A DNA stretch of 64,000 bases from Bacteroidales bacterium. Its GTDB lineage: Bacteria > Bacteroidota > Bacteroidia > Bacteroidales > VadinHA17. Below the pieces are notes generated by a model. It ran no database searches, was not told the origin of the DNA, and saw only the letters and a list, made by a program, of their open reading frames with translations. The stretch lies in the NCBI GenBank assembly GCA_049294075.1, contig JBAQCK010000111.1, forward strand, positions 2,946-66,945, read 5' to 3'. Position numbers and translations under genes: made by a program. Shown piece after piece: positions 3,090-40,805 of the stretch. The first letter of the stretch is position 1. Each line of letters starts with the position of its first letter.

Positions 3090-3091
3090 AT

Positions 3092-7882: not shown

Positions 7883-7883
7883 T

Positions 7884-18676: not shown

Positions 18677-19279
18677 ATGAGAATTCTGATTGTGGAAGAC
18701 GAAACTGCAGCCTGCGAAAATCTGGCAGTGATCCTGAAGGAAATTGAACCAGAAATTCAGATTGCAGGCTGTACAGAAAGCATTACCCAGACAGTCAGAT
18801 GGTTGAAAAACAATGAGCTGCCTGATCTGATCCTGATGGATATCCATTTGTCGGACGGTTCGGCTTTCTCTGTTTTTGATAAACTTACAATAGAAACACC
18901 GGTTATTTTCACTACGGCTTTTGATCAGTATGCCATAGAAGCATTTAGGGTCAACAGCATCGATTATCTGCTTCAGCCTGTAGGTATTGAAGAGGTTTCA
19001 TGCTTCTATACAACCGACAAGAACACCAGAGTCTGCCTGAAGAACGGCAGCTGGTATTCCTATCCAGGAACTCTTGATCAGATTGAATCCACATTGAATC
19101 CCGCGGAATTCATCCGGGCGAACAAACAATTCATCGTTGCCCGGAACAGTGTCAGGAATCTGACAATATGGTTCGACAGCCGTTTGCTTGTGACTCTTGA
19201 TGTAGAAACCCCGGAACGTATTTATGTCAGCAAAAACAGGGCAGCGGGATTCAAGGCATGGATAGTGAGGAATACATGA
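18677..19279 (+). CDS. LytTR-family response regulator, apparently shortened by an in-frame internal deletion
   Basis: 200 aa. Receiver domain MRILIVEDE...LILMDIHLSDG...IFTTAFDQYA...IDYLLQP runs directly into the mid-LytTR domain (FIRANKQFIV...). The roughly 40-aa linker and first LytTR strands expected in this family are missing. Confidence 0.7.
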   Translation: MRILIVEDETAACENLAVILKEIEPEIQIAGCTESITQTVRWLKNNELPDLILMDIHLSDGSAFSVFDKLTIETPVIFTTAFDQYAIEAFRVNSIDYLLQPVGIEEVSCFYTTDKNTRVCLKNGSWYSYPGTLDQIESTLNPAEFIRANKQFIVARNSVRNLTIWFDSRLLVTLDVETPERIYVSKNRAAGFKAWIVRNT

Positions 19280-19602: not shown

Positions 19603-20934
19603 ATGAAACGAATTCTGACAATATTGCTTTCCCTTATAATTATTGGCGCCATAGGATATGGAGTCTTCTATCTGATTTCCCAGGATCCTGAAGTATCCGC
19701 CAATCCATCTGAAAATTCCTCGGTTACGATTGAAGACAATGAAGTAACCGGATGGAGGGAAGACGACCGGTCGGGGATATCCTCAGAAAAAGGATTGCTT
19801 AAATCGTGGCCTGATGGCGGACCCGGACTTATCTGGTCAACCAATGAATTGCCCAAGGGACACTCCTCTCCCACTTTCGGGAACAACACTATTTATATCA
19901 CAGGTCTGGAAGAACCAAATGATGTGCTTGTTGCCCTTGATCCTTCAGGAAAGATCAAATGGAAAACTCCTTACGGAAGATACTGGGAGAAGTCAAATCC
20001 GGAAAGCAGATGTACACCAACGGTGGATGGTGAAAAAGTTTACGTATCCAGCGGATTCGGTGACCTGGCATGCATAAACGGCATTTCCGGTGAAATTATA
20101 TGGTCGCAGAAGGCAAGCGAAGAGAATGGAGGAACATACGGTCCCTGGGGTATAGCCGAATCTCCAATGATTGATGGTGAAAAACTGTATTTTACAACCG
20201 GAGGTCCTCAGACAACAACAATAGCACTCAACAAGAATTCAGGTGAGCTTATCTGGAAATCGGAGAGCGTCAATGATCCTGCTTCTTATCTTTCTCCGAC
20301 TCTGGTAGAGAAAGCAGGGACAAAAATTCTGGTAAACCTAACACCACGATACATTTTTGGCATTGATGTTTCGGATGGAACCATGCTTTGGAAAATAAAC
20401 CACAGGGAGGCTCTGGGCAAATCCGATATCAACGATACCGGCCAGATTTTATGTGTCACTCCGGTATCTTCAGGTAATATGATTTATATGACCGGAGGAT
20501 ATGATCACGGAGGTGTGATGATTGACATGGGCGATGACGGTAAAAACGCTACTTTTGCATGGAAAAACGAGATTCTGGATGTTCACCATGGCGGGGTTGT
20601 CGTTGTTGATGGCTATATTTACGGAGCGAACTGGATAAACAACGGAAACGGCAACTGGTGTTGCATCGACTGGAAAACAGGCAAGCTCATGTGGGAGGAA
20701 CACTGGAACAACAAGGGATCAATTATAGCCGCTGACGGCATGCTTTATATCTATGATGAACGGAAGGGTTCAGTTGGTTTGCTCAGACCCGATCCGTCAA
20801 AGTTTGATCTGGTGAGCAGTTTTAATTTTAAAGGCGGATCAGGCCCATACTGGGCACATCCCGTTATCCACAACGGTGTGCTTTATGTAAGGCATGGTGA
20901 AGCTCTCAATGCATATGATATCAAGGAAAAATAA
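19603..20934 (+). CDS. PQQ-like beta-propeller repeat protein, N-terminal membrane anchor (paralog 2)
   Basis: The track ORF starts at 19561. I prefer the ATG at 19603 (MKRILTILLSLIIIGAIGYGVFYLI is the anchor). GWREDDRSG...LIWS is followed by propeller blades. Confidence 0.75.
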   Translation: MKRILTILLSLIIIGAIGYGVFYLISQDPEVSANPSENSSVTIEDNEVTGWREDDRSGISSEKGLLKSWPDGGPGLIWSTNELPKGHSSPTFGNNTIYITGLEEPNDVLVALDPSGKIKWKTPYGRYWEKSNPESRCTPTVDGEKVYVSSGFGDLACINGISGEIIWSQKASEENGGTYGPWGIAESPMIDGEKLYFTTGGPQTTTIALNKNSGELIWKSESVNDPASYLSPTLVEKAGTKILVNLTPRYIFGIDVSDGTMLWKINHREALGKSDINDTGQILCVTPVSSGNMIYMTGGYDHGGVMIDMGDDGKNATFAWKNEILDVHHGGVVVVDGYIYGANWINNGNGNWCCIDWKTGKLMWEEHWNNKGSIIAADGMLYIYDERKGSVGLLRPDPSKFDLVSSFNFKGGSGPYWAHPVIHNGVLYVRHGEALNAYDIKEK

Positions 20935-22375
20935 CAGGCTTTTAACAGGAGTGTCGGCATTGGTATTTGCCGCGGTACTTGCCTGGTGGCTTGCTGATGA
21001 TCACTATCCGGCCGAAATGAACATGAGGGTCCCGGGTATGGATAACAGACCGAAAATTGAACCGCGGTCGGAGGAAATCATTGTCGGTGAATTCTTCGAC
21101 TCGCTGGGTACGTTTGACGGAATGGTTCCGGGCGAATGGCCAAGGTTCAGGGGTGTCAACTTCGATAATATAGTTAAGGACACCTTTGCAATGGCTGAGT
21201 CATGGGACACTACAGGTCCTCCGGTTATGTGGAAGGTAACTCTCGGCGAGGGCTATGCCGGACCGGCTGTTAAGAACGGAAGGGTCTACGTACTCGATTA
21301 CGACGAAAGAAGAAAAGCGGACGTGCTTCGCTGTTTCTCACTCAAATCTGGTACGGAGCAGTGGCGGAGATGGTATTATGTCGACATGAAGCGTAATCAC
21401 GGCTATTCCCGCACCATACCGGCGGTTACCGATAAATACGTGGTTACAGTAGGACCCAGGTCGCACGTGATGTGCGTCGATCCCGTTTCAGGAGAACTTT
21501 TCTGGACCATCGACATGGAAAAGGAGTTTGGCGTTCCCGGAAGTTCAAAGGGAAAAATCACACCTGATTTCTACTCCGGCCAGTGTCCTCTTATTGATAA
21601 CGATGTTGCAGTGCTTGCTCCCGGCGGAAAAGCCCTGATGATCGGCGTGAATTGTTCTGACGGGGAGATACTGTGGCGCACACCGAACCCCGACTCGCTG
21701 ATGATGTCCCATGGATCTATAATCCCCATGGTGATCCACGGAAGGAAAATGTACGTTTACAATGCTGTTGGAGGCGTTGTAGGCATTGCTGCTGACGGGA
21801 ATGATGTCGGAAGAGTCCTTTGGAAGACAAAGGAATGGAACCCGGCGACAACTGCCGCCTCTCCCCTGTACCTTGGGAATGGCGAAATAGCAGTGTTCGG
21901 AAGCTATGGGGCCGGCGGAGGAAAAATCAGGATTGACTTTGACGGATCAGGATACTCGGTTGCCGTGATAGAAACTCACAAGGCTATGGAAGGTATTTCC
22001 AGCGACCAGCAGACGCCAATTATCACTGGAGATTATGTATGGTCGGTGATGCCTGAGAACGCTGGACCCCTGAAGAAACAGCTTGTTACATACCATAAGT
22101 CCGATCTGAGAACACTCGTATGGAGCAGCGGCAAGGACATGAGATTCGGACGGGGACTCGGACCATTTATAGTAAAGGATGATAAACTGATACTGCTCGA
22201 TGATGATGCAAACCTTTTCATCTTCAGAATCGACGGCTCACAGGCAACCCTGCTTTCACAATTTGACATACTCGACGGAATCGAGGCCTGGGGACCGATG
22301 GCCATAGCAGGAAACTTCCTCATCCTTAGGGATGCAAGAAATATGGTTTGTCTTAATATCGGGAAAGATAGTTAA
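20915..22375 (+). CDS. PQQ-like beta-propeller repeat protein, N-terminal membrane anchor (paralog 3)
   Basis: Track ORF 20894..22375. Possible starts are 20894, 20909 and 20915, and all overlap the upstream gene's end. Anchor LLTGVSALVFAAVLAWWL; EWPRFRGVNFDN...VMWK. Confidence 0.7.
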   Translation: MISRKNNRLLTGVSALVFAAVLAWWLADDHYPAEMNMRVPGMDNRPKIEPRSEEIIVGEFFDSLGTFDGMVPGEWPRFRGVNFDNIVKDTFAMAESWDTTGPPVMWKVTLGEGYAGPAVKNGRVYVLDYDERRKADVLRCFSLKSGTEQWRRWYYVDMKRNHGYSRTIPAVTDKYVVTVGPRSHVMCVDPVSGELFWTIDMEKEFGVPGSSKGKITPDFYSGQCPLIDNDVAVLAPGGKALMIGVNCSDGEILWRTPNPDSLMMSHGSIIPMVIHGRKMYVYNAVGGVVGIAADGNDVGRVLWKTKEWNPATTAASPLYLGNGEIAVFGSYGAGGGKIRIDFDGSGYSVAVIETHKAMEGISSDQQTPIITGDYVWSVMPENAGPLKKQLVTYHKSDLRTLVWSSGKDMRFGRGLGPFIVKDDKLILLDDDANLFIFRIDGSQATLLSQFDILDGIEAWGPMAIAGNFLILRDARNMVCLNIGKDS

Positions 22376-22376
22376 T

Positions 22377-23291
22377 ATGGGAAAGAAACCTGCAGCAATA
22401 TTTTCACTGATCATAATACTTGCCTTCATGGCATACATGATCTATGACGCGACAAGAGGTTCAGGAGGAACTGAGAAGCCGGCAGCAACAACTACCGAGG
22501 AATATGAGGCAGACTGGATTATTGAAAAGATTTACAGCCTGCCGGCAGGATCCCTGACCTCGGTAGCCGTTTCTGAGAACGGAGGGATATTTCTTGGCGG
22601 AGATGCGTTTGTTACCGCCCTGGATCAGAATCTTGACGTACAATGGTCTCTTGAAACTGAAGGAAAGATAACAGCCCTTTCAGTGACGGGTGATACGGTA
22701 TTCGCTGCAACCACAGAGACTATTCTCCTCGTTTCCGCTTTAGGTAAACTGATTACCGAGTGGGGACCTTACGAGGGGAACAGCATTATAACATCAGTGT
22801 CTTCCGGCCCGGAGCTTGTTGCAATTGCTGATGCCGGAAACAAGAGGGTATTTGTTCTCGACAAGGCAGGCGAAGTTCTCAGAATGATGGGTCAGGGAGA
22901 TGAGAAATTTGTCATTCCGAGCGGTTACTTTGATGCTGCCGTGTCGGGCAATCTGGTTTTTGCTGCCAATACAGGCAATAGGAGAATTGAGACCTGGACA
23001 ACTGACGGCAGGAAGACAACTGAATTCGGAGAACCGGGAACAGCCCCCGGTGCGTTCTGCGGATGCTGCAACCCGGCACATTTTGCAGTGATCCCCCAGG
23101 GATTCGTCACTGCTGAAAAGGGAATCAACAGAATCAAAATACTTGACCGTGACGGTAAATTTGTTGAATTCGTTTCAGTGAACAATGAATTCAATCAGTC
23201 GGTCCCGCTTGATGTGGCTTCGGCCGACGGAGTCACTATATATGCTGCAAACAGCTTTGATAATAAACTTTATGTGTTCAAAAGAAAATGA
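22377..23291 (+). CDS. NHL-repeat six-bladed beta-propeller protein, N-terminal membrane anchor
   Basis: ATG at 22377 (MGKKPAAIFSLIIILAFMAYMIY) lies 1 nt after the upstream stop. NHL-like blades: NKRVFVLDKAGEV, NRRIETWTTDGRK, NRIKILDRDGKFV, NKLYVFKRK. Unusual GAFCGCCNPAHFAV motif. Confidence 0.6.
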   Translation: MGKKPAAIFSLIIILAFMAYMIYDATRGSGGTEKPAATTTEEYEADWIIEKIYSLPAGSLTSVAVSENGGIFLGGDAFVTALDQNLDVQWSLETEGKITALSVTGDTVFAATTETILLVSALGKLITEWGPYEGNSIITSVSSGPELVAIADAGNKRVFVLDKAGEVLRMMGQGDEKFVIPSGYFDAAVSGNLVFAANTGNRRIETWTTDGRKTTEFGEPGTAPGAFCGCCNPAHFAVIPQGFVTAEKGINRIKILDRDGKFVEFVSVNNEFNQSVPLDVASADGVTIYAANSFDNKLYVFKRK

Positions 23292-23467
23292 ATAAGTTAA
23301 CCAGACCGGAGTTTTTAAGGAAGCTTGCAAGAAGTCTCTTGCTTGCCTTTCTTGCTTTTCTTGCACTTGCTCTCGGATCACGGACTGTAAGCGGAAAGGA
23401 TTGTTCAACCTGTCCGGGAAAAGGACTCTGTGCCGGAGACAACGACTGCAGTAAATACTCAAAATGA
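23288..23467 (+). CDS. Untracked 59-aa ORF: Tat-like/anchor N-terminus + four-Cys tail
   Basis: My own translation: MNKLTRPEFLRKLARSLLLAFLAFLALALGSRTVSGKDCSTCPGKGLCAGDNDCSKYSK. ATGA overlaps occur at both ends (23288-23291 and 23464-23467). It falls below the 60-aa cut-off of the track. Confidence 0.4.
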   Translation: MNKLTRPEFLRKLARSLLLAFLAFLALALGSRTVSGKDCSTCPGKGLCAGDNDCSKYSK

Positions 23468-24030
23468 TGAATAAAGACAGGAACTTATACCAATCACGAA
23501 GGGATTTTGTCCGGAAAGCCGGCAAATTTCTTGTTGCTGTCCCGGTAATCGGTTTGCCTGTCGTTCTGTCGACCAGGATTACTACCGCGGGAACGGTCTG
23601 GCAGATCGATCCTTACAAATGCAACCAGTGCGGACAGTGCAAGACTCACTGTGTCCTCACTCCTTCGGCCGTCAAATGCATACATAATTTTCAGATGTGC
23701 GGCTATTGCGACCTCTGCGGAGGCTACCTGCGGCAGGGGACAAAAACTATCAACACCGGAGCTGAGAACCAGCTCTGCCCAACTGCTGCAATAACCAGAA
23801 CATTTGTGGAGGAACCTTATTTCCAATACACAATTGATGAAGTTCTTTGCGACGGATGCGGAAAATGTGTAAAAGGATGCAAGGATTTTGGGAATGGTTC
23901 CCTTTACCTGCAGATCGATCAGGATCTGTGCGTGAATTGCAACGAATGTGCTATAGCAAGGAGTTGTCCGTCGGATGCGATTTCCAGGATTTCAGACAAA
24001 GTGCAGTATATTCCAAAAGAAAAGATTTAA
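23464..24030 (+). CDS. Tat-exported multi-cluster ferredoxin (NapG-like)
   Basis: 188 aa. Twin-arginine motif QSRRDFVRKAG plus a hydrophobic stretch. Four Cys groups: CNQCGQCKTHC, CGYCDLCGG...CP, CDGCGKCVKGC, CVNCNECAIARSCP. Confidence 0.75.
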   Translation: MMNKDRNLYQSRRDFVRKAGKFLVAVPVIGLPVVLSTRITTAGTVWQIDPYKCNQCGQCKTHCVLTPSAVKCIHNFQMCGYCDLCGGYLRQGTKTINTGAENQLCPTAAITRTFVEEPYFQYTIDEVLCDGCGKCVKGCKDFGNGSLYLQIDQDLCVNCNECAIARSCPSDAISRISDKVQYIPKEKI

Positions 24031-24036
24031 CTGAAG

Positions 24037-25320
24037 GTGAAAAAGAAATTGCCATATATCCTGTTATTCCTTATGCTTGCATGGCATGCGGTGCTTTTTG
24101 CACAGGAAAGATTTCCAAGGCCGGAGTTTGAATCCGGATATGTTTATCCCGTGCATCAGATGCCCGCTGACAGGGCTCCCATATGGGAATATATCGATCT
24201 CGCAGTGCTTATCGGGGCTCTTTCTGTGGCAGCGTGGCTGGCGCTCAAAAAACGCTCGCGTAATGGACTTTTATGGCTATCAGTATTTTCCCTGGCCTAT
24301 TTCGGATTTTTCAGGGAAGGATGTATATGCTCAGTCGGCTCGGTTCAGAATGTTGCCCTTGCACTTTTCAACGACGGATATTCGATTCCCCTGACTGCTC
24401 TCCTGTTCTTCATGATACCTCTGATCTTTGCACTTTTATTCGGCAGGGTATTCTGTGCGGGGGTCTGCCCTCTTGGCGCCATTCAGGAGCTTGTTGGTTT
24501 CAGAACCGTCAAACTTCCCAGGGTTGTTGAGTCGGTAATGATATCAGTGCCTTTCATTTATCTGGGAATTTCAGTTCTTTCGGCTGCAACTGAAAGCCAG
24601 TTCCTGATATGCCGTTACGATCCCTTTGTAGGCATCTTCAGGCTCGATGCACCGTATACAATGGTGATATTCGGAGGATTGCTGCTTGTCGCGGGGATTT
24701 TCATCAACAGGCCTTATTGCAGGTATTTATGTCCCTATGGTGTTCTACTGAATATATTCTCAAGGTTTTCAAACAAGCATCTTACAATTACACCGGCAGA
24801 ATGCATTAATTGCAGACTGTGCGAGGATGTTTGTCCGTACGATGCCATTCTTCCCTCCGACATAGCCCGTCCCGCGGCGGACCCGGATAAGGAGAGAAAG
24901 CGATTTCTTACATATATATTGCTTGTGCCGTTTTTCGCAGCAGCGGGTGCGATAATTTTCGGAACCCTTTCCCCTGTTTTCACCGGTCTGAACAGTGATG
25001 TCAGGCTGGCCAGGGAAATCAGAGCTGAAGCAGAGAGTGGAATCCCGGCTGTTTCGCTGGCTGCCCAGGGTTTTAAGGAAGCAGGCACAACAGAAGCCGA
25101 ACTGTTTGAAAAGGAAATTAAAATCCATGAGCGGTTCCGGAAGGGCTCCATATGGATGGGATTATTTCTCGGAATATCGTTCGGTCTCAGCCTTGTTTCG
25201 CTGTCAACACGAACCAGAAGAACAGAGTATGTTCCACATAAGGGCAAATGCTACAGTTGTGGAAAATGCTTTCAGTATTGCCCTGTACATTTAAATAAGA
25301 TCAAGAATGATAAAGCTTGA
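24037..25320 (+). CDS. Integral-membrane polyferredoxin (NapH/MauN/NosH-like)
   Basis: 427 aa with multiple TM helices. Paired CxxxCP motifs FCAGVCPLGAIQE and YCRYLCPYGVLL. Ferredoxin motifs CINCRLCEDVCPYDAI and the C-terminal CYSCGKCFQYCP. Confidence 0.75.
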   Translation: MKKKLPYILLFLMLAWHAVLFAQERFPRPEFESGYVYPVHQMPADRAPIWEYIDLAVLIGALSVAAWLALKKRSRNGLLWLSVFSLAYFGFFREGCICSVGSVQNVALALFNDGYSIPLTALLFFMIPLIFALLFGRVFCAGVCPLGAIQELVGFRTVKLPRVVESVMISVPFIYLGISVLSAATESQFLICRYDPFVGIFRLDAPYTMVIFGGLLLVAGIFINRPYCRYLCPYGVLLNIFSRFSNKHLTITPAECINCRLCEDVCPYDAILPSDIARPAADPDKERKRFLTYILLVPFFAAAGAIIFGTLSPVFTGLNSDVRLAREIRAEAESGIPAVSLAAQGFKEAGTTEAELFEKEIKIHERFRKGSIWMGLFLGISFGLSLVSLSTRTRRTEYVPHKGKCYSCGKCFQYCPVHLNKIKNDKA

Positions 25321-27031
25321 AGAAAAGGATCTGAAGATTCTCAGAGGGATAAGCACCGCTGCAGGAATTTTTACCCTCATCGTGGCGCTGACGATGCTTT
25401 TGAGCATTGTCCAGCTGAAGGCTCTCGATCCTCTTGACAATCCCGCAATTGTATCGGTGAAGGAAGAATTTGACAAGGATCATGAAAATGCGGTTAAGGC
25501 GGAACAGGTAAGGGCGCTCGATCTGATGGCCAGGAAGGCCTATTTCTCATCGCGCCGGCAGGTTGAAACGGGTTCCTGGCTGCTGATTGCAGGAGCAGTT
25601 ATATTTGTTCTGTGTCAAAGGCTCATAGCAGGGAGTGAGAAAAATATTCCTTCGGTTCCGGGAGAAAAAACCGATCAGGTCTCGGATAAGGCCCGTTATG
25701 CAAAATACCTTACAGGTACTGTGGCAGTCCTGACTGTGGCTGCAATAATCTCTTCATTCATTCTAAGAAAAGATCTGCCTGACCTGTCAGGAAAACGGAC
25801 TGCAAAGGCAGAAAAGAGCGAGAAGAGGAAAAAGGACAAAGACGCTGCATCAGCTTCAGAGACGGCTGCAGCTTTTTCCCCAGATCCTGTCAACTTTCCC
25901 CATTTCCGCGGTCAGGACGGAAGGGGAATTGCCGGCGGCACTGGTTATCCGGTTGAATGGAATGCCGAAAACGGAACAAATATTAAATGGAAGGCGAGTG
26001 TGCCAAAAAGTGGAAAGAGCTCCCCTGTAATATGGGGCGACAGACTCTTTGTTACCGGCGCTGAAGGCAATGATTGTGAGGTATACTGTCTTGACAAGAA
26101 CACCGGCGATTTGTTATGGACTGCTGCTGCGTCAGGACTTCCCGGTCAGCCCGCCACTTCCCCCGAAACCGACCAAGAAACAGGCATAGCTGCTCCCACA
26201 GCCGCTACCGACGGCAATTCCGTTTGCGCGATCTTTGCAAACGGAAACCTTGTCTGCCTCGATTTTGACGGTAAGCTTAAATGGGGCAAGAATATCGGAA
26301 CTCCGGCTAACGTTTACGGGTATTCATGCTCTGTAATACTTCACGATGGCCTTCTCATAGTCCAGTTCGATTCGGATGAGAAAGTATCGATGATGGGATT
26401 CGACACAGCTACAGGAGATCTTAAATGGGAAACTATCAGGAGAGGCAGATCAACATGGGCTTCGCCTTCGGTGGCGACCTTCAACGGAATAACTCAGATA
26501 CTTATAAACGGCAACCCGGAAGTGGTGGCATTCGATCCGGCCACTGGCAAGGAGCTTTGGGCAATCGAAGTCCTTTCCGGTGATGTAGCCCCTTCGCTTG
26601 CGATAAACAGCACATTTATTTACGCAGTCACTGATTATGCACGACTGGCAGCAGTGAAACCCGGGCCTGGCCCTTCGATAGCCTGGGAAGACAACATGTT
26701 TACATCGGACGTTTCAAGCCCGGTTGCCAGCGAGCAGTATCTTTTTATATCTACCGGTGTAGGCGATGTGGCTTGCTATGATGCTATCAGGGGAGACACT
26801 CTGTGGACTCATTACTTCATGGATCAGTTCTATGCTTCACCGATCATTGCCGATGAGAAGGTATTCCTTCTCGATCGCAGCGGTTTGATGCATATTGTTG
26901 ATGCCGGACCTGAATACAATCTGATTGCCGAATCCCCGATCGGCGAACCTTCAGACTGCACACCGGCATTTTCCGACAAGAATATTTATATCCGTGGTAG
27001 AAACAATATTTTTTGCATTTCACAAAATTGA
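25307..27031 (+). CDS. PQQ-like beta-propeller repeat protein with two N-terminal TM segments and a Lys/Ala-rich linker (paralog 4)
   Basis: 574 aa. TM segments AAGIFTLIVALTMLLSIV and WLLIAGAVIFVL plus VAVLTVAAIISSFIL. Linker KAEKSEKRKKDKDAASASE. NFPHFRGQDGRG...IKWK, then blades. Confidence 0.7.
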   Translation: MIKLEEKDLKILRGISTAAGIFTLIVALTMLLSIVQLKALDPLDNPAIVSVKEEFDKDHENAVKAEQVRALDLMARKAYFSSRRQVETGSWLLIAGAVIFVLCQRLIAGSEKNIPSVPGEKTDQVSDKARYAKYLTGTVAVLTVAAIISSFILRKDLPDLSGKRTAKAEKSEKRKKDKDAASASETAAAFSPDPVNFPHFRGQDGRGIAGGTGYPVEWNAENGTNIKWKASVPKSGKSSPVIWGDRLFVTGAEGNDCEVYCLDKNTGDLLWTAAASGLPGQPATSPETDQETGIAAPTAATDGNSVCAIFANGNLVCLDFDGKLKWGKNIGTPANVYGYSCSVILHDGLLIVQFDSDEKVSMMGFDTATGDLKWETIRRGRSTWASPSVATFNGITQILINGNPEVVAFDPATGKELWAIEVLSGDVAPSLAINSTFIYAVTDYARLAAVKPGPGPSIAWEDNMFTSDVSSPVASEQYLFISTGVGDVACYDAIRGDTLWTHYFMDQFYASPIIADEKVFLLDRSGLMHIVDAGPEYNLIAESPIGEPSDCTPAFSDKNIYIRGRNNIFCISQN

Positions 27032-29448
27032 AAGAGGAAACTAAACATACCAGAACCTGCAACTGCAACTCCGGTGCACTTTCTGTTGAAGAAATTACCT
27101 CGGTGGTTGATGCCGTTGTAAGCGAAACAGGTACCGGAAAGGAAAAAGTGATACTGGTGCTCCAGGAAGTCCAGAAAAGACTTAATTATCTTCCTTCTGA
27201 AGCTCTTAAGCACATCTGCAGGGTGACTGAAATCACGCCCGGACAGATTTCAGGAGTTTCAACATTCTATTCCCAGTTCAGACACATACCGTCAGGGAAA
27301 CACACGATAAAAATCTGCTCCGGGACCGCGTGCCACGTAAAAGGATCGGAGCTGATTTCAGAAGCATTCAAAAGAGATCTCAAGATCACGGAAGAGAGGA
27401 ACAGCTCCCCTGACAATCTCTTTTCGATTGAGGAAGTTGCCTGCCTGGGTTGCTGCACGCTTGCGCCTGTTGTCCAGATAGATGAAAAGACTTACGGGCA
27501 TGTGAAACCTACTGAAGTGATTGAGATTGTCACGGATTTTCTCCACACCGTCGGAAAGCAGAGTGCTCAGAAAAAGGATTCAGTAAAAGAGGAATATGAT
27601 GCCGAAGTCAGGATTGGACTGGGATCTTGTTGTGTTGCTGGCGGAAGCAGGGACGTGCTGGGCAAGCTGCTCGACATAAGAGAATACTATGATCTTAACA
27701 TTAAGGTCAAACCTGTGGGTTGTGTTGGCGTTTGCAACCAGACTCCACTGCTCGAAATTGTATCCGACGGTAAAGGAAGTTCCCGGTACACAAATGTGAA
27801 AAAAGACCAGGTCGAGGAAATTATTCTGAAACATGTCAAGCCAAGGTCATTTGACAAGAAACTGAGATTCAGAATCAATAATTTTGCTGATTCCTTCCTT
27901 TCAGACGATATGGTTTACAGTCCGGTAAATATCCCGGCTGATACCAGGGAAAATACCCTTGATAATTTCCTTAGTACACAGTACCATATTGCCACCATTA
28001 ACGGTGGTGTTATGAGACCTGATTCATACGACGAATATGAGCTTCTCGAAGGATTCAGGGCCATTAAGGCAGTGTTGATGGCCAATAATCCACAGGAGGT
28101 GATTCAGGTTATTACCGAAAGCGGATTAAGAGGCCGGGGAGGAGCAGGATTTCTGACCGGAAAGAAATGGGAAATATCGTCAGGAATGAAGGAGAAGCCC
28201 AAATATGTTGTCTGCAACGGTGACGAAGGTGACCCGGGAGCTTTTATGGACAGGATGATCCTTGAGTCTTTTTCCTTCAGGATTATTGAAGGAATGCTCA
28301 TTGCCGGATTTGCAACCGGAGCCGACCATGGAATCTTCTATATAAGGGCGGAATATCCTCTGGCTGTTTCAAGAGTGAGGAATGCACTGAAAATATGCAA
28401 GGAAAAAGGAATAGTCGGAAAGAACATACTTGGGTCGGATTTTTCATTTGATATAGAGGTGTTTGAAGGTGCAGGGGCTTTTGTGTGCGGTGAGGAAACC
28501 GCACTTATAGCGTCTCTTGAGGGAAAGAGGGGAACTCCCCATCTGAGACCTCCCTATCCTGCAGTGAAGGGCTACAATGGCCGTCCAACGCTTGTCAACA
28601 ATGTGGAGACGCTTTCACTTGTGCCCTGGATAATCAATAACGGCTCCGGTAAATTCAGCGATATCGGAACAGAAAAAAGCAAGGGAACCAAAGTGTTTGC
28701 ACTCGCCGGCAAAGTTGCCAGGGGCGGACTCATTGAGGTTCCGATGGGTACAACAATCCGGGATATTGTAGAAAAGATCGGACACGGAGTTTTGGAGGGA
28801 AGGACTTTCAAGGCTGTTCAGATCGGAGGACCTTCAGGCGGATGCATCCCGGAAAGTCTTGCCGACACTCCTGTCGATTATGAGGAACTTACGCGACTTG
28901 GGGCCATGATGGGTTCAGGCGGAATGGTTGTTCTGGACGATACCGACTGCATGGTAGACATGGCAAGATACTTCCTTGAATTCACCCATAAGCAGTCGTG
29001 CGGGAAATGCACTTACTGCCGTGTGGGAACAAAGCAGATGCTTGAGATACTTACAAGGCTTACTCAGGGCAAAGCCACTATTGCAGAACTGGATGAACTG
29101 GAAAAACTATGCCATGATGTCAGTAAGGGAAGCCTTTGCGGACTCGGGAAAACAGCTCCGAACCCCGTAATAACCGGACTGAGATACTTCAGGGAAGAAT
29201 ATGAAGCCCACACCCGGGGAATATGCCCCTCAAAGAGATGCAGGGATCTTGTTAAATATGAAATTACCGACAAGTGCACGGGATGCACGAAATGTGCACA
29301 GGACTGTCCGGTTGACGCTATTCCCTTCAAACCATACGAAAAACACCAGATTGATCAACTGCTCTGTACCAAATGCGACAACTGCAGGATTGTTTGTCCG
29401 GAAAACGCCATTGAACTAGTTTATGTAAAAGATGAAGATCATAATTGA
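27013..29448 (+). CDS. Fused NuoE-like [2Fe-2S] + thioredoxin-like FeS + NuoF-like (FMN/NADH, 4Fe-4S) + 2x[4Fe-4S] ferredoxin protein
   Basis: 811 aa. CSGTACHVKG...CLGCCTLAPV (NuoE type). LGSCCVAGG...VGCVGVCNQTP (second thioredoxin-like domain). GRGGAGFLTGKKWE, CNGDEGDPGAF and GAGAFVCGEETALI (NuoF type). SCGKCTYCRVG...CGLG. C-terminal CTGCTKCAQDCP and CTKCDNCRIVCP. The start is uncertain: TTG at 27013, or TTG at 27028 overlapping the upstream TGA. Confidence 0.85.
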   Translation: MHFTKLKEETKHTRTCNCNSGALSVEEITSVVDAVVSETGTGKEKVILVLQEVQKRLNYLPSEALKHICRVTEITPGQISGVSTFYSQFRHIPSGKHTIKICSGTACHVKGSELISEAFKRDLKITEERNSSPDNLFSIEEVACLGCCTLAPVVQIDEKTYGHVKPTEVIEIVTDFLHTVGKQSAQKKDSVKEEYDAEVRIGLGSCCVAGGSRDVLGKLLDIREYYDLNIKVKPVGCVGVCNQTPLLEIVSDGKGSSRYTNVKKDQVEEIILKHVKPRSFDKKLRFRINNFADSFLSDDMVYSPVNIPADTRENTLDNFLSTQYHIATINGGVMRPDSYDEYELLEGFRAIKAVLMANNPQEVIQVITESGLRGRGGAGFLTGKKWEISSGMKEKPKYVVCNGDEGDPGAFMDRMILESFSFRIIEGMLIAGFATGADHGIFYIRAEYPLAVSRVRNALKICKEKGIVGKNILGSDFSFDIEVFEGAGAFVCGEETALIASLEGKRGTPHLRPPYPAVKGYNGRPTLVNNVETLSLVPWIINNGSGKFSDIGTEKSKGTKVFALAGKVARGGLIEVPMGTTIRDIVEKIGHGVLEGRTFKAVQIGGPSGGCIPESLADTPVDYEELTRLGAMMGSGGMVVLDDTDCMVDMARYFLEFTHKQSCGKCTYCRVGTKQMLEILTRLTQGKATIAELDELEKLCHDVSKGSLCGLGKTAPNPVITGLRYFREEYEAHTRGICPSKRCRDLVKYEITDKCTGCTKCAQDCPVDAIPFKPYEKHQIDQLLCTKCDNCRIVCPENAIELVYVKDEDHN

Positions 29449-30499
29449 CAATACAGAAGTCGAGGTAAAAGAGGGCCAGACCATCCTTGAAGCGGCACAC
29501 ATTGCAGGAAAAGATATACCTACTCTGTGCCACAGGGACGGTGTGGAACACTATTCTTCATGCATGGTTTGCATGGTGAGGGACAGGAAGAAGAACAATT
29601 TCATACCCTCATGCTCGGCTCTTGTACAGGAAGGAATGGACATAGACGCTTCTGGCGAAGAGGTTGTCAGCCTGAGAAAAAAGGCTGTCACCCTACTGCT
29701 TTCCGAACACAGGGCTGAATGCGAGGCACAATGCCGGATTGTTTGCCCCATGGGATACAACATACCTCTGATGAACAGGCTCCTCATTGCAGGGGAACAC
29801 GAAGAGGCTGCTGAACTTATAAGGTCCGAAATGAATGGTGGCGAACTGAATTGTTTTACCTGCAAAGCTTTTTGTGAGAATGCCTGCAGAAGAAAGAAGA
29901 TTGACACTCCGGTCTCTATCCGGAACATCAGGATTTTTATTAGCAGGAATCTGCCACAGACAGCAAAATATAAGGTTTCTCCTTTCTATTCAAACAGTGA
30001 CATCAAAAAAAGGTTCTCTTCAAGAATAGGTTCACTAAACGAAAAGGAGCAGCTTGAATGGGTGAAGGAATGCCCTGATGATATCAGGCGTAACAGGGGA
30101 ATTGCCGATTATGCGTCTGCTTCTGAAGAAGCAGTAAGTTGTATGCATTGCGACTGCAGGGCTGCCAGCGAATGCAGGTTAAGGGACCTGGCTGAGAAGT
30201 TTTCACTTAAGGACCCGAAGGGGAAATTCGTCAACGCCCCGGTGGCAAAAAAGATAAACAAAAAAACCGGCCTGATTTTTGAAAATGCCAAGTGTATAAA
30301 GTGCGGACTTTGTGTAAGGGTAGTGGAAGATTCAACTGACGCGCCGGCGTTCTGCTTCATCAACAGGGGATTCGTTTCGGTCATTTCGGAGCCTCTCACT
30401 GTTGAATACGCTGATATACCGGCTTCCGTAGCAAAAAAATGCGCTGAGGTTTGCCCTACAGGAGCGCTGGCATTTATGAACAATGACAACGGAACATGA
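29432..30499 (+). CDS. All-iron-sulfur protein: NuoG/HydA-type N-terminal [2Fe-2S] + GltD-type FeS domain + C-terminal 4Fe-4S motifs; no catalytic domain
   Basis: 355 aa. MKIIIDNTEVEV...TLCH..SSCMVCMV...PSC (2Fe-2S). SEHRAECEAQCRIVCP. GEHEEAAELIRSEMNGGELNCFTCKAFCENACRR resembles the GltD/NfnB N-terminal FeS domain. CMHCDC, CIKCGLCVRV and CAEVCPTGAL follow. Confidence 0.75.
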   Translation: MKIIIDNTEVEVKEGQTILEAAHIAGKDIPTLCHRDGVEHYSSCMVCMVRDRKKNNFIPSCSALVQEGMDIDASGEEVVSLRKKAVTLLLSEHRAECEAQCRIVCPMGYNIPLMNRLLIAGEHEEAAELIRSEMNGGELNCFTCKAFCENACRRKKIDTPVSIRNIRIFISRNLPQTAKYKVSPFYSNSDIKKRFSSRIGSLNEKEQLEWVKECPDDIRRNRGIADYASASEEAVSCMHCDCRAASECRLRDLAEKFSLKDPKGKFVNAPVAKKINKKTGLIFENAKCIKCGLCVRVVEDSTDAPAFCFINRGFVSVISEPLTVEYADIPASVAKKCAEVCPTGALAFMNNDNGT

Positions 30500-31614
30500 A
30501 ATATATATTTTCCATATCACTTTTTATTCTTTCATTCACTCTGGAAGGATTTGCGCAGACTTCTGACCAGGAGTGGACAATATTCAGAGGAAAACCAGAC
30601 CTGACAGGAAATACAACAATTGACGTTTCAGCCAAACCATCGCTGATCTGGAGCCTGCCTGCTACAGGCAGGACAAAATCGTCGCCCGTGGTCAGCAGCG
30701 GATTGATATTCTTTGGCAACGATAAGGGTACGGTGATGGCAGTGGGGACAGACGGCAGGATAAAATGGAGTTATGAAGGTGGCTCGCCTGCCGAAGCGCC
30801 TCCGATGGTGTACGACGACAAGGTGATTATAGGATTAAATGACGGATCCCTTCATGCCATAAATAAGTCCAGCGGAAAATTAGCCTGGAAATACAAGACT
30901 GATGGGCAGATAGCAGGTTCGGCAAATGCCTGGTCGACAGGAAAAAGATCCGGAATTGTAATTGGCAGTTATGATTATTACCTGCATTCCGTTGACCCTT
31001 CGAACGGATTGCTTCAATGGAAGCTCGAAACAATGAATTATGTCAACGGCACCCCGGCCGTCACTAACAATAATATCGTTTTCGGTGGTTGCGACGGATT
31101 CATCAGAATTGTTGACGCCTATTCAGGAAGAGAAAAAGATACAATTGAGATAGGTACCTATATTGCTTCCTCTCCTGCCCTTTCAGGCGGGAAAGCATGC
31201 TTCGGCGACTATGACGGCAATTTTTTCTGTGTTGATCTGCTCAGCGGAAAACTGGCCTGGGAAGTTCCCGCAGGTGAAACATCCGGATCGGTTGTGGCAA
31301 TACCTGCAATAGGAAGGAATTCAGTTATCATTGGCAACGAGGATAAATACCTTTACAGCTATGACATTATTACCGGGAAGCTTAACTGGAAATTCCGTAC
31401 CAACGGAAGAATTACCGGTTCAGCTGTAATCACGCCCTCCAAAGTACTTTTCGGAAGTGTCGATGGCAATGTTTATTTGCTCGGCTTGAATGACGGCAAA
31501 AAGATATGGAGCTTCAACGCGGGTTCTCCCGTCAGCAGCACACCGGCAGTAACAGGCGACATGTTTTACATCCTGACGGAGGACGGACGTTTGCTTGCTT
31601 TTGGAACCAGATAA
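30496..31614 (+). CDS. PQQ-like beta-propeller repeat protein, signal peptide (paralog 5)
   Basis: 372 aa. ATGA overlap with the upstream gene. Signal peptide ...LEGFAQ. EWTIFRGKPDLTG...LIWS. Regular G.V...D.G.L.A.....G...W blades. Confidence 0.75.
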   Translation: MKYIFSISLFILSFTLEGFAQTSDQEWTIFRGKPDLTGNTTIDVSAKPSLIWSLPATGRTKSSPVVSSGLIFFGNDKGTVMAVGTDGRIKWSYEGGSPAEAPPMVYDDKVIIGLNDGSLHAINKSSGKLAWKYKTDGQIAGSANAWSTGKRSGIVIGSYDYYLHSVDPSNGLLQWKLETMNYVNGTPAVTNNNIVFGGCDGFIRIVDAYSGREKDTIEIGTYIASSPALSGGKACFGDYDGNFFCVDLLSGKLAWEVPAGETSGSVVAIPAIGRNSVIIGNEDKYLYSYDIITGKLNWKFRTNGRITGSAVITPSKVLFGSVDGNVYLLGLNDGKKIWSFNAGSPVSSTPAVTGDMFYILTEDGRLLAFGTR

Positions 31615-31709
31615 CAGGACCTGATCGAACATATTTCATTCTGTTCAGTTATATATTGAACAAGTTCCGGTACACCGGATCTTTTTGAACGGAAGCAAAA
31701 TTTTATTAC

Positions 31710-33005
31710 ATGAAGATAGTCTATTTGATAACCGGATCGGGCGGATCCTTTTATTGCGGAAATTGTTACCGCGACATGCTCTATGTCCGTGCCATCAGGA
31801 AGGTTCCGGGAATAAAGGCAAGCGCCATACCCCTTTACCTTCCGCCAGACAAGACAACGGGCAGTGAAAGCGGATTTGACAAAAATGTTTTCTTCGGAGC
31901 AATTTCAATGTTTCTGAGGGAAAAAGTCCCTTTCCTCAGAAATATGCCTGCTTTTTTTGATAAATTCCTTGATTCAAAACTGTTTCTCCGCTTTGCAGCA
32001 AAACAGGCAGGAACAACAAGTACCGAAGGTTACGAGGAGCTTACCATAAGCATGATCGAGGGCGACAATGCATTTCGGAAGGCCGAAGTTGACAGGCTGG
32101 TCAGATACCTCACCAAAGACGGGAAACCAGATATAATCCATCTTTCAAATGCCCTCATCCTTGGAATTGCCCGTCAGCTGAAAAAGAGAATTGATGTAAA
32201 GGTTGTGTGCTCCCTTCTGAACGAGGATGACTGGATTGATGACATGGAGGAGCCTTTCCGTTCAAGAGCCTGGAAGATGATTGCCAAAGAGGCAGGATAT
32301 GTCGATTTGTTTGTTACTCCAAGCAGTTATTACCGCGAACTGTTTAAAAGCAAGACAGGTCTTAAGGGTGAAAACGTACACGTGGTTCCCCTTGGCTTTG
32401 ATCCTGAAAAAGACGAAATGTCAAGGACTGACAGAGAACCTTCTTCAATAGGTTTTTTCAGCCGCATAAGCAATTATAACGGCATTGACAAACTTGTTGA
32501 TGCTTTCATTGAAATGAAAAAGCAGGATCAGGTTCCGGGACTGTCGCTGAAGATATGCGGGGGCTACACAGGGGTTGACAAGGAGTTCATTTCAGCCCAG
32601 ATTAAAAAAATCAGGGAAAACAAACTGGAGAAGTCAGTGAAGATTTACCCTGAATTTGAAGGCGATAAAAAGCTTGAATTCTTCAGGGATGTTGATGTTA
32701 TTAGCGTACCTGTCAGAAAATATGATGGTTACGGATTGTATCTTCTTGAGGCGAATGCCTCGGGAATCCCAGTTGTCCAGCCGGCAACGGGAGCTTTCCC
32801 TGAGATAATTGAAAGAACAGGCGGAGGAATAATCTACTCCCCAGATACGGTCAGCGAACTGGCTGACAACCTTACGAAGTTGCTGAAGGACAAGAAAAAG
32901 CTTGCAAGCCTTGGAGAAAAGGGCAGCCGCATGGTAAGAGAGGAGTTATCGCTCGCCAAAATGTCGGCCGGACTCGGGGAAATTTATAATAAAGCCATGT
33001 TATAA
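31710..33005 (+). CDS. Glycosyltransferase, GT4 (GT-B fold) family
   Basis: 431 aa. The C-terminal half has the GT4 pattern (...SVPVRKYDGYGLYLLEANASGIPVVQPATGAFPEII). The N-terminus carries CGNCYRD. The stop overlaps the next gene's start (TAATG). Confidence 0.8.
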   Translation: MKIVYLITGSGGSFYCGNCYRDMLYVRAIRKVPGIKASAIPLYLPPDKTTGSESGFDKNVFFGAISMFLREKVPFLRNMPAFFDKFLDSKLFLRFAAKQAGTTSTEGYEELTISMIEGDNAFRKAEVDRLVRYLTKDGKPDIIHLSNALILGIARQLKKRIDVKVVCSLLNEDDWIDDMEEPFRSRAWKMIAKEAGYVDLFVTPSSYYRELFKSKTGLKGENVHVVPLGFDPEKDEMSRTDREPSSIGFFSRISNYNGIDKLVDAFIEMKKQDQVPGLSLKICGGYTGVDKEFISAQIKKIRENKLEKSVKIYPEFEGDKKLEFFRDVDVISVPVRKYDGYGLYLLEANASGIPVVQPATGAFPEIIERTGGGIIYSPDTVSELADNLTKLLKDKKKLASLGEKGSRMVREELSLAKMSAGLGEIYNKAML

Positions 33006-39131: not shown

Positions 39132-39174
39132 ATTTGCTGTTTCCTGATTTTCTCAAACAAGTCCCTGGAATGTC

Positions 39175-40440: not shown

Positions 40441-40481
40441 GATTTATAGTTGTTTTCTTAATAAACTGAAATATGACAGAA

Positions 40482-40796
40482 TTATTCCATGAAAAACACC
40501 TGTTCGAGTGGTATGCTTACAGGTGAATTGTCGGGATTTGTCTCCATGATATCGGCCATATACTTCCACCATTTCTTTACTATTTCCCCGGCACCGAGAT
40601 CCTGTGAGGAACTTTCACCCGATTGTTCCTGGTATGCAAAAAGTATGTTAGTCTCCTCATCATAAAAGATCGAATAATTGCCAACGCCCTGACTTTTAAG
40701 CAACCTGACAAGCTCAGGCCATATTTCACTGTGCCTCTTTCTGTACTCTTCCCTGAAACCGGGATAAAGCTTCATTTTGAACGCAAATCTCTTCAT
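40482..40796 (-). CDS. rhaM: L-rhamnose mutarotase
   Basis: 104 aa. MKRFAFKMKLYPGFREEYRKRHSEIWPEL...NYSIF is typical of RhaM. Confidence 0.85.
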   Translation of the reverse strand: MKRFAFKMKLYPGFREEYRKRHSEIWPELVRLLKSQGVGNYSIFYDEETNILFAYQEQSGESSSQDLGAGEIVKKWWKYMADIMETNPDNSPVSIPLEQVFFME

Positions 40797-40805
40797 TGTT
40801 TTCAG

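Follow-up and report, generated by a model that had tools for sequence, protein, structure and literature searches.

The closest described relatives of the system reported here are NapGH, a Sec-inserted membrane Fe-S protein combined with a four-cluster ferredoxin of the twin-arginine translocation (Tat) route and accepted as a quinol dehydrogenase (PMC5449189), and the electron-bifurcating Bfu family (HydABC, NfnABC and StnABC), defined in PMC9304861 and including 17 BfuB clades without assigned function. NapH-like PF12801 proteins are also known to pair modularly with periplasmic oxidoreductases, among them the propeller enzymes NirS and ExaA, and most are of unknown function (Meheust et al. 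2021, PMC8238504). We analyzed a stretch of 64,000 nt (hereafter the window, to whose positions all coordinates refer) from a VadinHA17 bacterium of the Bacteroidales (GCA_049294075.1, contig JBAQCK010000111.1), in which ten genes at 19603-31614 (g1-g10) place a NapH-like protein and Bfu-type proteins among exported beta-propellers.

Like NapGH, NosGH and MauMN, the locus pairs a polytopic protein, Sec-inserted and bearing two cytoplasmic CX3CP motifs along with [4Fe-4S] motifs, with a Tat-exported ferredoxin of four [4Fe-4S] motifs encoded beside it. In contrast to them, the membrane protein g6 contains three additional transmembrane segments, its ferredoxin domain is split and a Cys3-Asp set is present on its periplasmic side, and its partners are cofactor-less propellers and a Bfu module in place of NapA/B, NosZ or MauA/B. 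With respect to the Bfu family (PMC9304861), g8 corresponds end to end to BfuB with BfuC fused in front and g9 to the N-terminal FeS cassette of BfuA, but this BfuA lacks a catalytic domain, with neither an H-cluster nor a pterin or NADPH/FAD site, and its apparent third-substrate partner is the NapH-like membrane protein, which is not among the Mbh-Bfu and Nuo-Bfu types discussed there. The flavinylated NapH-like systems likewise use a PF12801 membrane protein as a modular conduit to periplasmic oxidoreductases (PMC8238504); they are, however, defined by an ApbE-flavinylated FMN-binding domain, whereas no FMN_bind or ApbE was detected here with Pfam/NCBIfam, and the periplasmic carriers are a Tat polyferredoxin and a four-Cys mini-protein.

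On balance, and with moderate confidence, we consider that 19603-31614 encodes the core of a single envelope redox complex of several subunits, which would employ Fe-S and flavin cofactors only and lead from the cytoplasm to periplasmic propellers. Judged by sequence, its novelty would lie in supplying a NapH-type electron conduit from a Bfu module and in a periplasmic end without precedent. No published description of this gene combination was found in the literature searched, and the full supercluster, including the linked blocks described below, has a substantial chance of being new in kind. The ten genes are as follows.

g1, 19603..20934, + strand: membrane-anchored PQQ_2 propeller (Pfam PQQ_2 1.7e-27), transmembrane residues 4-22
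g2, 20915..22375, + strand: membrane-anchored 8-bladed PQQ_2 propeller (Pfam PQQ_2 4e-17)
g3, 22377..23291, + strand: membrane-anchored six-bladed NHL propeller
g4, 23288..23467, + strand: Tat-type signal-anchored mini-protein of 59 residues with four conserved Cys (CxxCx5Cx6C)
g5, 23464..24030, + strand: Tat-exported four-cluster polyferredoxin of 188 residues, NapG-like architecture, SRRDFV motif
g6, 24037..25320, + strand: polytopic NapH-like Fe-S membrane protein (Pfam Fer4_5 1.6e-16)
g7, 25307..27031, + strand: anchor of three transmembrane segments with a periplasmic PQQ_2 propeller (Pfam PQQ_2 1.6e-33)
g8, 27013..29448, + strand: cytoplasmic fused BfuC-BfuB (Pfam domains and PDB matches)
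g9, 29432..30499, + strand: cytoplasmic all-FeS truncated BfuA of 355 residues (StnC/NfnA/HydA N-terminal type)
g10, 30496..31614, + strand: Sec-exported PQQ_2/ACSF4-type propeller (Pfam Beta-prop_ACSF4 200 bits, above cutoff)

The Fe-S core and the NADH module

The first-pass annotation of the window had described a + strand operon of ten open reading frames (ORFs) starting between 19603 and 30496, and all of these were recovered by ORF listing. Longer alternative starts were listed for the first three, at 19561 (g1), 20894 (g2) and 22332 (g3), and the shorter ones, e.g. 20915 for g2, were preferred because the g2 homologues are 486-488 residues long. The junctions computed from g1 to g10 were -20, +1, -4, -4, +6, -14, -19, -17 and -4 nt, in good agreement with the range of -20 to +6 nt given earlier, and ATGA overlaps were present at g3/g4, g4/g5 and g9/g10. 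All domain calls were backed by Pfam and NCBIfam profile searches, and the proposed layout of three compartments (cytoplasm, membrane and exported) was borne out by a hydropathy scan, which also provides the transmembrane and signal predictions given below for g1-g10 and u6. A haem-based electron chain, which the annotation had likewise not seen, was ruled out by the absence of the CxxCH motif from all 20 proteins of the supercluster (u1 to d3), and no conventional catalytic subunit was found among the cluster proteins by Pfam/NCBIfam profiles and motif checks.

The g6 protein was predicted to have seven transmembrane segments and a signal-like N-terminus. Its CX3CP motifs (FCAGVCP and YCRYLCP) and the motifs C256-C266 and C405-C415 were all invariant, as expected for NapH, and it shared 24% identity with E. 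coli NapH across 165 residues containing both CX3CP motifs. The scores against the NapH models were nevertheless low (52.6 bits with a cutoff of 213 for TIGR02163; 49.1 with a cutoff of 234 for NF007013), and no NapH-type chain matching g6 was found in the PDB. One ferredoxin motif was displaced to the C-terminus by insertion of a transmembrane hairpin, and additional transmembrane helices were present as compared with NapH. Furthermore, a GCxC...CxxD set consisting of C96, C98, C192 and D195, located in loops predicted to be periplasmic, was kept in 148 of 150 family cluster representatives and was absent from E. coli NapH.

The adjacent g5 carries a twin-arginine signal followed by 16 Cys in four motifs, enough for four [4Fe-4S] clusters and invariant across 77 and 52 homologues, which is the architecture of NapG/MauM; its cross-phylum identity was approximately 50-65%. 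Its score against TIGR00397 (MauM/NapG) was only 16.1 bits with a cutoff of 178.85, and its likeness to E. coli NapG was confined to the motifs. The NapG/NapH-like pair recognized in the first-pass annotation thus stands as an architecture but not as a family membership, both the NapH and the NapG models being far under cutoff, and no NapA/NapB, NosZ or MauA/B partner (no molybdopterin or haem c) was present in the window cluster or related loci.

The g4 ORF, previously listed by its start alone, was now recognized as a conserved Tat-type, membrane-anchored four-Cys protein. Its N-terminal T-R-x-x-F-L-K-K motif and single transmembrane helix were conserved in 70 or more Bacteroidales loci, and the counterparts in other phyla have a true twin-arginine motif (SRREFLR and similar), a transmembrane segment and a Cx5CxxCx5-6C-LPQA motif. 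Most simply, these features suggest that g4 is a candidate one-cluster carrier. A quinone small subunit like those of methylamine dehydrogenase (MADH) or quinohaemoprotein amine dehydrogenase (QHNDH) was also considered for g4 and rejected, given the absence of the conserved Trp and the presence of the membrane anchor. Among the cluster proteins there were also no other signs of a methylamine dehydrogenase or quinohaemoprotein cluster, such as a haem motif, MauG or a QhpA-like protein.

The connection between the membrane protein and the propellers was indicated by gene fusion. About 10 of the top 150 g6-family representatives were approximately 1000 residues long, Pfam analysis of three proteins (P0146, P0166 and P0254) revealed a NapH-like part followed by a PQQ_2 propeller, and in one locus (L081) g6 and g7 formed a single fused ORF. 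Fusion of the two genes in certain lineages indicates that g7 is physically coupled to g6.

As for g8, the earlier call of a NuoE/F-type NADH module was correct in its domains but not in an identity with complex-I NuoEF, since the protein corresponds instead to the BfuBC core of the HydABC/Nfn/Stn family. Its best PDB relative was StnB (8oh5_B, 677 bits), followed by NfnB (9n5u_B) and HydB, and the alignment with StnB covered g8 residues 198-275 and 319-800 with the C-terminal ferredoxin domain included. The domain order of g8 is a NuoE-like [2Fe-2S] domain, a thioredoxin-like [2Fe-2S] domain, an FMN/NAD(H) site, an N3-type [4Fe-4S] site and a C-terminal 2x[4Fe-4S] domain. Residues 34-175 matched 2Fe-2S_thioredx/NuoE (1.3e-46) as an N-terminal BfuC fusion, and the remaining Pfam matches (Complex1_51K, NADH_4Fe-4S, a second 2Fe-2S_thioredx stretch and Fer4_21) were those of BfuB. 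The assignment to Bfu and not to complex I was made because the N-terminal [2Fe-2S] and C-terminal 2x[4Fe-4S] domains set Bfu apart.

Residues 2-172 of g9 matched StnC (8oh5_C, 6.6e-38) as well as NfnA (9n5u_A) and HydA (8a6t_A) in the PDB search. Pfam identified Fer2_4, Fer4_20 and Fer4_Nqo3, and Cys33/44/47/61 and H93/C97/C101/C105, corresponding to the A1 [2Fe-2S] and A2 sites of BfuA, were invariant. Outside the Bacteroidales, g9 was 510-550 residues long with one Rossmann (Pyr_redox_2) segment, at whose position the Bacteroidales protein has a short linker; long forms in Planctomycetota and other phyla are exemplified by L130:15182-16834, L081:15502-17127 and L187:15310-16851. The comparison points to a clean loss of the Rossmann domain in Bacteroidales within an otherwise conserved operon. 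Neither g8 nor g9 has a signal peptide or transmembrane segment, and together they are predicted to constitute a cytoplasmic Bfu-type NAD(H)/ferredoxin-reactive flavo-FeS module without a catalytic third-substrate domain. Their sequences place them in the Bfu family, with bifurcation as a candidate activity.

The propellers and the distribution of the cluster

Single N-terminal anchors were predicted for g1, g2, g3 and the mini-protein g4, three transmembrane segments for g7, and Sec signals for g10 and for u6, a further propeller encoded upstream of g1. Of these proteins, g2 was the best-conserved periplasmic non-FeS subunit, with 35-51% identity across phyla and the conserved motifs HG..RT.P and M.H.S. 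Its AlphaFold2 (AF2) model, with a predicted local distance difference test score (pLDDT) of 81, was an 8-bladed propeller, for which Foldseek returned a tie between tetrathionate hydrolase and BamB (TM-score of about 0.55, E of about 1e-15 to 2e-16, identity 13-17%); no sequence match to g2 was found in the PDB. The likeness to these two proteins is one of fold only, an 8-bladed PQQ_2-type fold without pyrroloquinoline quinone (PQQ), together with shared membership of the PQQ_2 family.

A profile of 41 g3 homologues matched the NHL domains of Thin, TRIM2, TRIM3 and TRIM71 in the PDB (E 6e-21 to 5e-19), the match being weak for the single sequence; the single-sequence AF2 model of g3 (pLDDT 43) was not used. 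The F-G-C-C-N-P motif of g3 was invariant, with G229, C230, C231, N232 and P233 identical in all 41 sequences from several phyla, and its three Cys residues in total all lie within CGCC. The gene was present in 58 of 62 Bacteroidales loci and in 42 of 43 others.

The propeller g1 was a variable accessory member with one to four tandem copies in relatives, and u6, its paralogue (BLASTP 5.8e-42 to g2 and 1.5e-37 to g1), replaces or accompanies it in related loci. Three or four tandem g1 paralogues stand between the terpenoid block (u1-u5, see below) and g2 in L156, L161, L167, L184, L192, L199, L234 and L237-L250, which belong to Prolixibacteraceae, Mariniphaga and Lentimicrobiaceae; the window has one g1 together with u6.

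Several identities were assessed for the propellers and rejected. Against PQQ-dependent enzymes, PF01011 gave 24-30 bits, at or below the cutoff of 26.7 with no stretch passing alone, and TIGR03075 gave 32-74 against 480. True BamB was rejected on scores of 26-137 bits (cutoff 285 for TIGR03300, and 285-423 over the equivalog models), on the missing lipobox Cys and on the N-terminal transmembrane anchors or plain Sec signals, BamB in contrast being a lipoprotein. A NosZ-like copper propeller would require a His-rich ligand set, which was absent, just two or three conserved His being present in g2. Redox sites formed by Cys in the propeller strands were likewise discarded, in view of a recurring 'x-C-x-D...G..W' strand position common to all paralogues; because most conserved Cys of the PQQ_2 propellers sit at this position, they are most likely structural.

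A scan with g6 as query retrieved 80 Bacteroidales loci from metagenome-assembled genomes (MAGs), whose gene content was read by tblastn with the window proteins, and the order g1..g10 was unchanged across them down to about 60% identity. Further queries with a g6+g7 fusion and a profile of distant members retrieved 133 additional loci, from Planctomycetota (Pirellulales, Phycisphaerae, Sedimentisphaerales and Thermoguttaceae), Verrucomicrobiota, Lentisphaerota, Armatimonadota, Omnitrophota, Poribacteria, KSB1, Aegiribacteria, Prolixibacteraceae, Mariniphaga and Lentimicrobiaceae, along with a few Desulfobacteraceae, Spirochaetaceae and Anaerolineales MAGs; the order g2-g3-(g4)-g5-g6-g7-g8-g9 was kept in these with almost no exceptions. 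A genomic scan with the distant g6 representative P0211 found no relative. Many of the loci are MAGs, and some taxon labels, e.g. 'Bifidobacteriaceae', are probably mis-binned. In total, the cluster spans more than 10 bacterial phyla, with the order g2-g3-g4-g5-g6-g7(-g8-g9) in more than 200 loci, and the shared gene order far exceeds chance expectation. Conserved synteny in related genomes, whose absence had been named beforehand as one of the findings that would refute the proposal, was thus observed across phyla.

The g6 family comprises more than 7000 homologues in a set of 5.8 billion proteins and 398 clusters at 50% identity (1e-30 or better, 1.8 billion cluster representatives searched), which the source annotations describe only as '4Fe-4S binding protein', 'NosR/NirI family' or 'BamB'. 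Carriers of the cluster belong to lineages that are dominant in the turnover of polysaccharides, and it is frequently encountered in anaerobic digesters, sediments, fens and groundwater. Two cultured carriers were found, Planctomycetales bacterium ZRK34 and Novipirellula herctigrandis CA13. In the latter the cluster is g2-g3-(g4)-g5-g6-g7 alone, with unrelated flanking genes and no u- or d-genes within 10 kb, which reduces the minimal unit to g4, g5, g6 and two or three propellers.

Where enough downstream sequence was available, g8 adjoined the core in 51 of 61 Bacteroidales loci and 23 of 37 others. The NADH module is thus an accessory, and the core works without g8/g9. The earlier suggestion that NADH-derived electrons may be wired across the membrane therefore needs qualifying, since NADH cannot be the only donor. 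In the loci lacking g8/g9, the neighbors were GFO/IDH/MocA oxidoreductases, URO-D-like proteins and a WD40 kinase, none of them consistent as an alternative donor. GFO/IDH/MocA-family genes stand beside such cores at L088:3653-6071, L102:13270-14580, L084 and L112, and URO-D-like genes in L088 and L110.

Linked terpenoid and exporter blocks

While the genes and junctions of the ten-gene operon were confirmed, its extent was not, since two further groups of genes, u1-u5 and a g10-glycosyltransferase-ABC-FtsX unit, travel with the core. The genes flanking g1-g10 are the following.

u1, 10629..11435, + strand: cytoplasmic 2x[4Fe-4S] ferredoxin-domain protein with a Cys-containing N-terminal domain (Pfam Fer4 families)
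u2, 11445..12623, + strand: radical SAM enzyme of 392 residues (Pfam Radical_SAM 2.9e-18)
u3, 12616..14232, + strand: DUF116 (1.5e-27) fused to a trans-polyprenyl diphosphate synthase (polyprenyl_synt 3.6e-43)
u4, 14225..15067, + strand: small alpha/alpha-toroid, prenyltransferase-like (Pfam Prenyltrans 5.4e-08, below gathering cutoff in quality)
u5, 15060..16871, + strand: class II terpene cyclase-like protein of squalene-hopene cyclase (SHC) fold (Pfam SQHop_cyclase_C and _N)
u6, 17038..18330, + strand: Sec-exported PQQ_2 propeller with a signal peptide (Pfam PQQ_2 3.2e-23)
u7, 18677..19279, + strand: LytTR-type response regulator (Pfam Response_reg and LytTR)
d1, 31710..33005, + strand: cytoplasmic glycosyltransferase of family GT4 (Pfam Glycos_transf_1 1e-21)
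d2, 33005..33679, + strand: LolD/MacB/DevA-type ABC ATPase (Pfam ABC_tran; NCBIfam LolD 3.7e-62, under cutoff)
d3, 33690..36956, + strand: duplicated FtsX/MacB-type permease of 1088 residues with ten transmembrane segments (Pfam FtsX x2)

The genes u1-u5 formed a fixed block down to 45-55% identity in the 38 loci retrieved with u5. The block adjoined the redox genes in about 28 of the 38 Bacteroidota loci, including L223, L224 and L229, where it lies between g10 and d1, and u5, u3 or u1 also stood beside redox genes in Armatimonadota, Planctomycetota and Victivallales loci; u1, the first gene of the block, adjoins the cluster in the Planctomycetota loci L154, L166, L178, L182, L187 and L194. 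Since flanks of up to 10 kb were examined, the linkage frequencies of both the u- and d-blocks are lower bounds. Within the block, u2 was 60-94% identical across loci, the start of u3 is uncertain (its ORF opens at 12454), and u4 was invariably found between u3 and u5. In u5, the DxDD protonation motif (DxDDT, as VPDADDT) was kept as VPD.DDT at 90% or above in 47 homologues. NCBIfam gave no closer assignment, the u2 subfamily and u5 cyclase models all being far under cutoff and the geranylgeranyl diphosphate, farnesyl diphosphate and heptaprenyl synthase models under cutoff for u3.

The passages of PMC12414744 and PMC7306690 that deal with an 'SHC-like' clade place it in the Planctomycetota-Verrucomicrobiota-Chlamydiota (PVC) and Fibrobacterota-Chlorobiota-Bacteroidota (FCB) groups, Spirochaetota and Acidobacteriota, with an uncharacterized product and a non-squalene context. 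Having the SHC fold and DxDD and standing beside a polyprenyl and not a squalene synthase, u5 probably belongs to this clade, with which it agrees in taxonomic range and non-squalene context. In contrast, a link to a NapH-like/Bfu/propeller cluster is absent from those same passages. In a Sedimentisphaerales locus, a different radical SAM protein of 510 residues with a CGKGCKFC motif (L187:18967-20499) lies between the u1-like and u3-like genes; because it is not of the 392-residue u2 type, the radical-SAM tailoring step of the terpenoid block may differ between phyla.

The genes d1-d2-d3 were found downstream of the core in nearly all Bacteroidales loci, and d1 in many loci of other phyla. 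The order g10-d1-d2-d3 was conserved, and the four genes change place together; in many Phycisphaerae and Pirellulales they precede g2. As in the MacB, LolCDE and DevBCA exporters, a LolD/DevA-like ATPase (d2, overlapping d1 by 1 nt) is combined with a duplicated FtsX protein having large periplasmic domains (d3; 33795-35180, about 460 residues, and 35889-36599, about 240 residues), here with a glycosyltransferase alongside. These domains matched no Pfam family and gave just a weak YbbP match in the PDB. Unlike those exporters, all curated models were under cutoff, and no membrane-fusion or TolC-like partner was seen.

Because both blocks are linked to the redox core, the functional neighborhood is about 10629-36956 (~26 kb). 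The redox complex is genetically tied to the GT4/MacB-type exporter block and the terpene block, and so is probably tied to them functionally too. Between the u-block or u6 and g1, u7 was present in about 15 loci, seen in Bacteroidales only and with no sensor kinase nearby, and it is a candidate local regulator. A sigma-70 promoter and terminator scan gave background-level results, the sigma-70 model being unsuited to Bacteroidota. Within the 95 nt that separate g10 from d1, a short hairpin rich in GC and with a T-run behind it was noted at 31666-31679, which may be a partial terminator or a processing site.

Proposed electron path and alternatives

In the proposed complex, NADH, possibly with reduced ferredoxin at the C-terminal clusters of g8, would be oxidized at g8, and g9 would hand the electrons to the cytoplasmic clusters of g6. 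Within g6, the CX3CP sites and the Cys3-Asp site that is specific to the family and lies on the periplasmic side would carry them across the membrane, whereupon g5 and g4 would receive the electrons and pass them on to whatever substrate the propeller assembly binds; the likeliest reaction sites would be g3, with its invariant vicinal Cys (GCCNP), and g2. NADH cannot be the sole donor because g8/g9 are missing in some loci, and for the same reason another donor, most plausibly menaquinol, is needed; in those loci g6/g5 would probably draw on menaquinol, like NapGH. The linked terpenoid, GT4 and MacB-type genes point to an envelope glycolipid of cyclic terpenoid type as a possible substrate, anchor or product, and the main alternative is an inorganic or organic sulfur or disulfide species, as suggested by the Cys-rich periplasmic parts and the tetrathionate-hydrolase-like fold. 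If NADH- or ferredoxin-derived electrons are carried to the periplasm in this way, the cluster would represent an electron sink or branch of respiration that has gone unrecognized in Bacteroidales, Planctomycetota and Verrucomicrobiota supposed to be fermentative, and the Bfu family would gain a membrane-docked member. The Cys3-Asp set of g6 would provide a handle on NapH-type transmembrane electron movement, and the link to an 'SHC-like' cyclase makes the product and purpose of these cyclases directly testable, with a bearing on orphan terpane biomarkers.

Several observations weigh against this assignment. A periplasm-face Fe-S site would be unusual on the Sec-inserted g6, whose Cys3-Asp set could instead be a thiol/disulfide relay, and we know of no established mechanism by which any NapH-type protein moves electrons across the membrane. 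No recognizable cofactor site was found in the propellers, most of whose conserved Cys occupy the structural strand position; propellers of the PQQ_2 type frequently serve as scaffolds only, one example being BamB, which scored level with tetrathionate hydrolase when the g2 fold was searched. The g8/g9 pair was missing beside the core in 10 of 61 Bacteroidales loci (~16%), in 14 of 37 others (~38%) and in Novipirellula, and it could be merely a co-regulated soluble enzyme that does not dock on g6. Because Bfu enzymes are reversible, electrons may flow in either direction.

Two alternatives take up the optional nature of the NADH module and the linked blocks. In one, which we consider unlikely, the cluster is a quinol-driven periplasmic reductase, with g6/g5 as a NapGH-like menaquinol dehydrogenase and g8/g9 as a separate soluble NADH:ferredoxin-type enzyme that is co-transcribed only, e.g. 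for poising redox pools. Of 98 loci with sufficient flanking sequence, 24 had the core g2-g7 but not g8/g9, Novipirellula herctigrandis included, the g9 of other phyla retains a Rossmann domain of FAD/NAD type that might serve a soluble substrate of its own, and NapGH itself is accepted as a quinol dehydrogenase (PMC5449189). Where present, however, g8-g9 always directly follow g7 in the same order with overlapping junctions in more than eight phyla, the cytoplasmic clusters of g6 are suited to accept electrons, and the FeS-only g9 of Bacteroidales, having lost the Rossmann domain, leaves no third substrate unless the electrons go to another protein. In the other, also rather unlikely although less so, the 26-kb supercluster makes a cyclic terpenoid glycolipid for the envelope, and the Fe-S chain does no more than supply reducing equivalents to one periplasmic tailoring step; on this equally uncertain route the prenyl synthase u3 would feed the u4/u5 cyclase, followed by u2/u1 radical-SAM modification, glycosylation by d1 and extraction by d2/d3, with the propellers as periplasmic BamB/Lol-like scaffolds or chaperones in transporting or inserting the lipid. 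The adjacency of u1-u5 to the redox genes in most Bacteroidota loci retrieved with u5 and in three other groups, the insertion between g10 and d1, the movement of the g10-GT4-ABC unit with the core, the LolD/DevA-like d2 and the BamB-like fold of g2 all fit such a machine. Against it, the usual setting of a Bfu flavo-FeS module and of a four-cluster Tat ferredoxin is high-flux energy metabolism rather than the tailoring of lipids, the Novipirellula core stands alone, and the propellers fall far under the BamB models and are membrane-anchored. To our knowledge, moreover, no periplasmic Fe-S-dependent lipid-modifying reaction has been described.

The remaining two concern the chemistry and direction of the periplasmic end. 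A thiol-disulfide relay, in which the g6 clusters would reduce a periplasm-side CxC/Cys disulfide in FTR- or Hdr-like fashion and thiols would pass via g4 and g3 to envelope disulfides, polysulfide/persulfide or oxidized Cys/Met, would account for the invariant GCxC and C192 of g6, the four conserved Cys of g4 and the invariant CGCC/GCCNP that holds the sole Cys of g3, and the fold of g2 resembles that of tetrathionate hydrolase, a cofactor-less enzyme of sulfur compounds. We regard it as improbable, as the low-potential four-cluster ferredoxin g5 would be superfluous for such a relay, the Tat signal of g4 favors a cytoplasmically inserted cofactor over free thiols, the likeness to tetrathionate hydrolase is no better than that to BamB, and Pfam detected no thioredoxin-fold protein among the cluster proteins. 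Slightly more improbable still is operation in reverse, with the propellers oxidizing a periplasmic donor, electrons flowing inward via g5 and g6, and the Bfu module bifurcating them to NAD+ and ferredoxin. Such a direction is compatible with the reversibility of Bfu enzymes (PMC9304861) and with the occurrence of NapH-like modules beside oxidases such as ExaA as well as reductases (PMC8238504), but the genes provide neither a catalytic cofactor nor a candidate for a low-potential donor in the periplasm, and the hosts look like fermentative polysaccharide degraders (the window includes sulfatase and rhamnose genes) in need of electron sinks and not donors.

The envelope redox complex favored above might further be part of a larger whole. 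We advance it as a possible but doubtful extension that all of 10629-36956 encodes one machine, in which a membrane-docked Bfu module feeds a NapH-like transmembrane cluster chain and this in turn a multi-propeller assembly that acts on, or is organized by, an 'SHC-like' terpenoid glycolipid; that the path of such a machine would be Fe-S-only, haem-free and flavinylation-free is put forward just as tentatively. If correct, this would define a new class of envelope redox system in FCB, PVC and allied phyla and give the 'SHC-like' cyclase clade its first functional context.

The supercluster is flanked in the window by genes of glycan metabolism and others. Directly upstream, five tandem sulfatase genes on the - strand (1527-9314; Sulfatase and SGSH_C) and a phosphotriesterase-family gene (9377-10435, - strand) were found, the sulfatase run looking like a sulfated-glycan degradation island. 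A role of the cluster in sulfatase maturation was considered and rejected, as u2 has no match to the anaerobic sulfatase-maturating enzyme (anSME) and the cluster occurs elsewhere without sulfatase neighbors. Downstream lie a DUF2490 outer-membrane beta-barrel gene (37073-37741) and rhamnose utilization genes (37764-44690) for an FGGY kinase, the L-rhamnose isomerase RhaA and a GH78 alpha-L-rhamnosidase of 909 residues. In strain ZRK34, the region upstream of g2 (L130:788-6498) encodes an extra set of exported repeat proteins, comprising two NHL-repeat proteins, a LamG-type lectin-fold protein, a DUF1559 pseudopilin-like protein and a BNR/Asp-box propeller.

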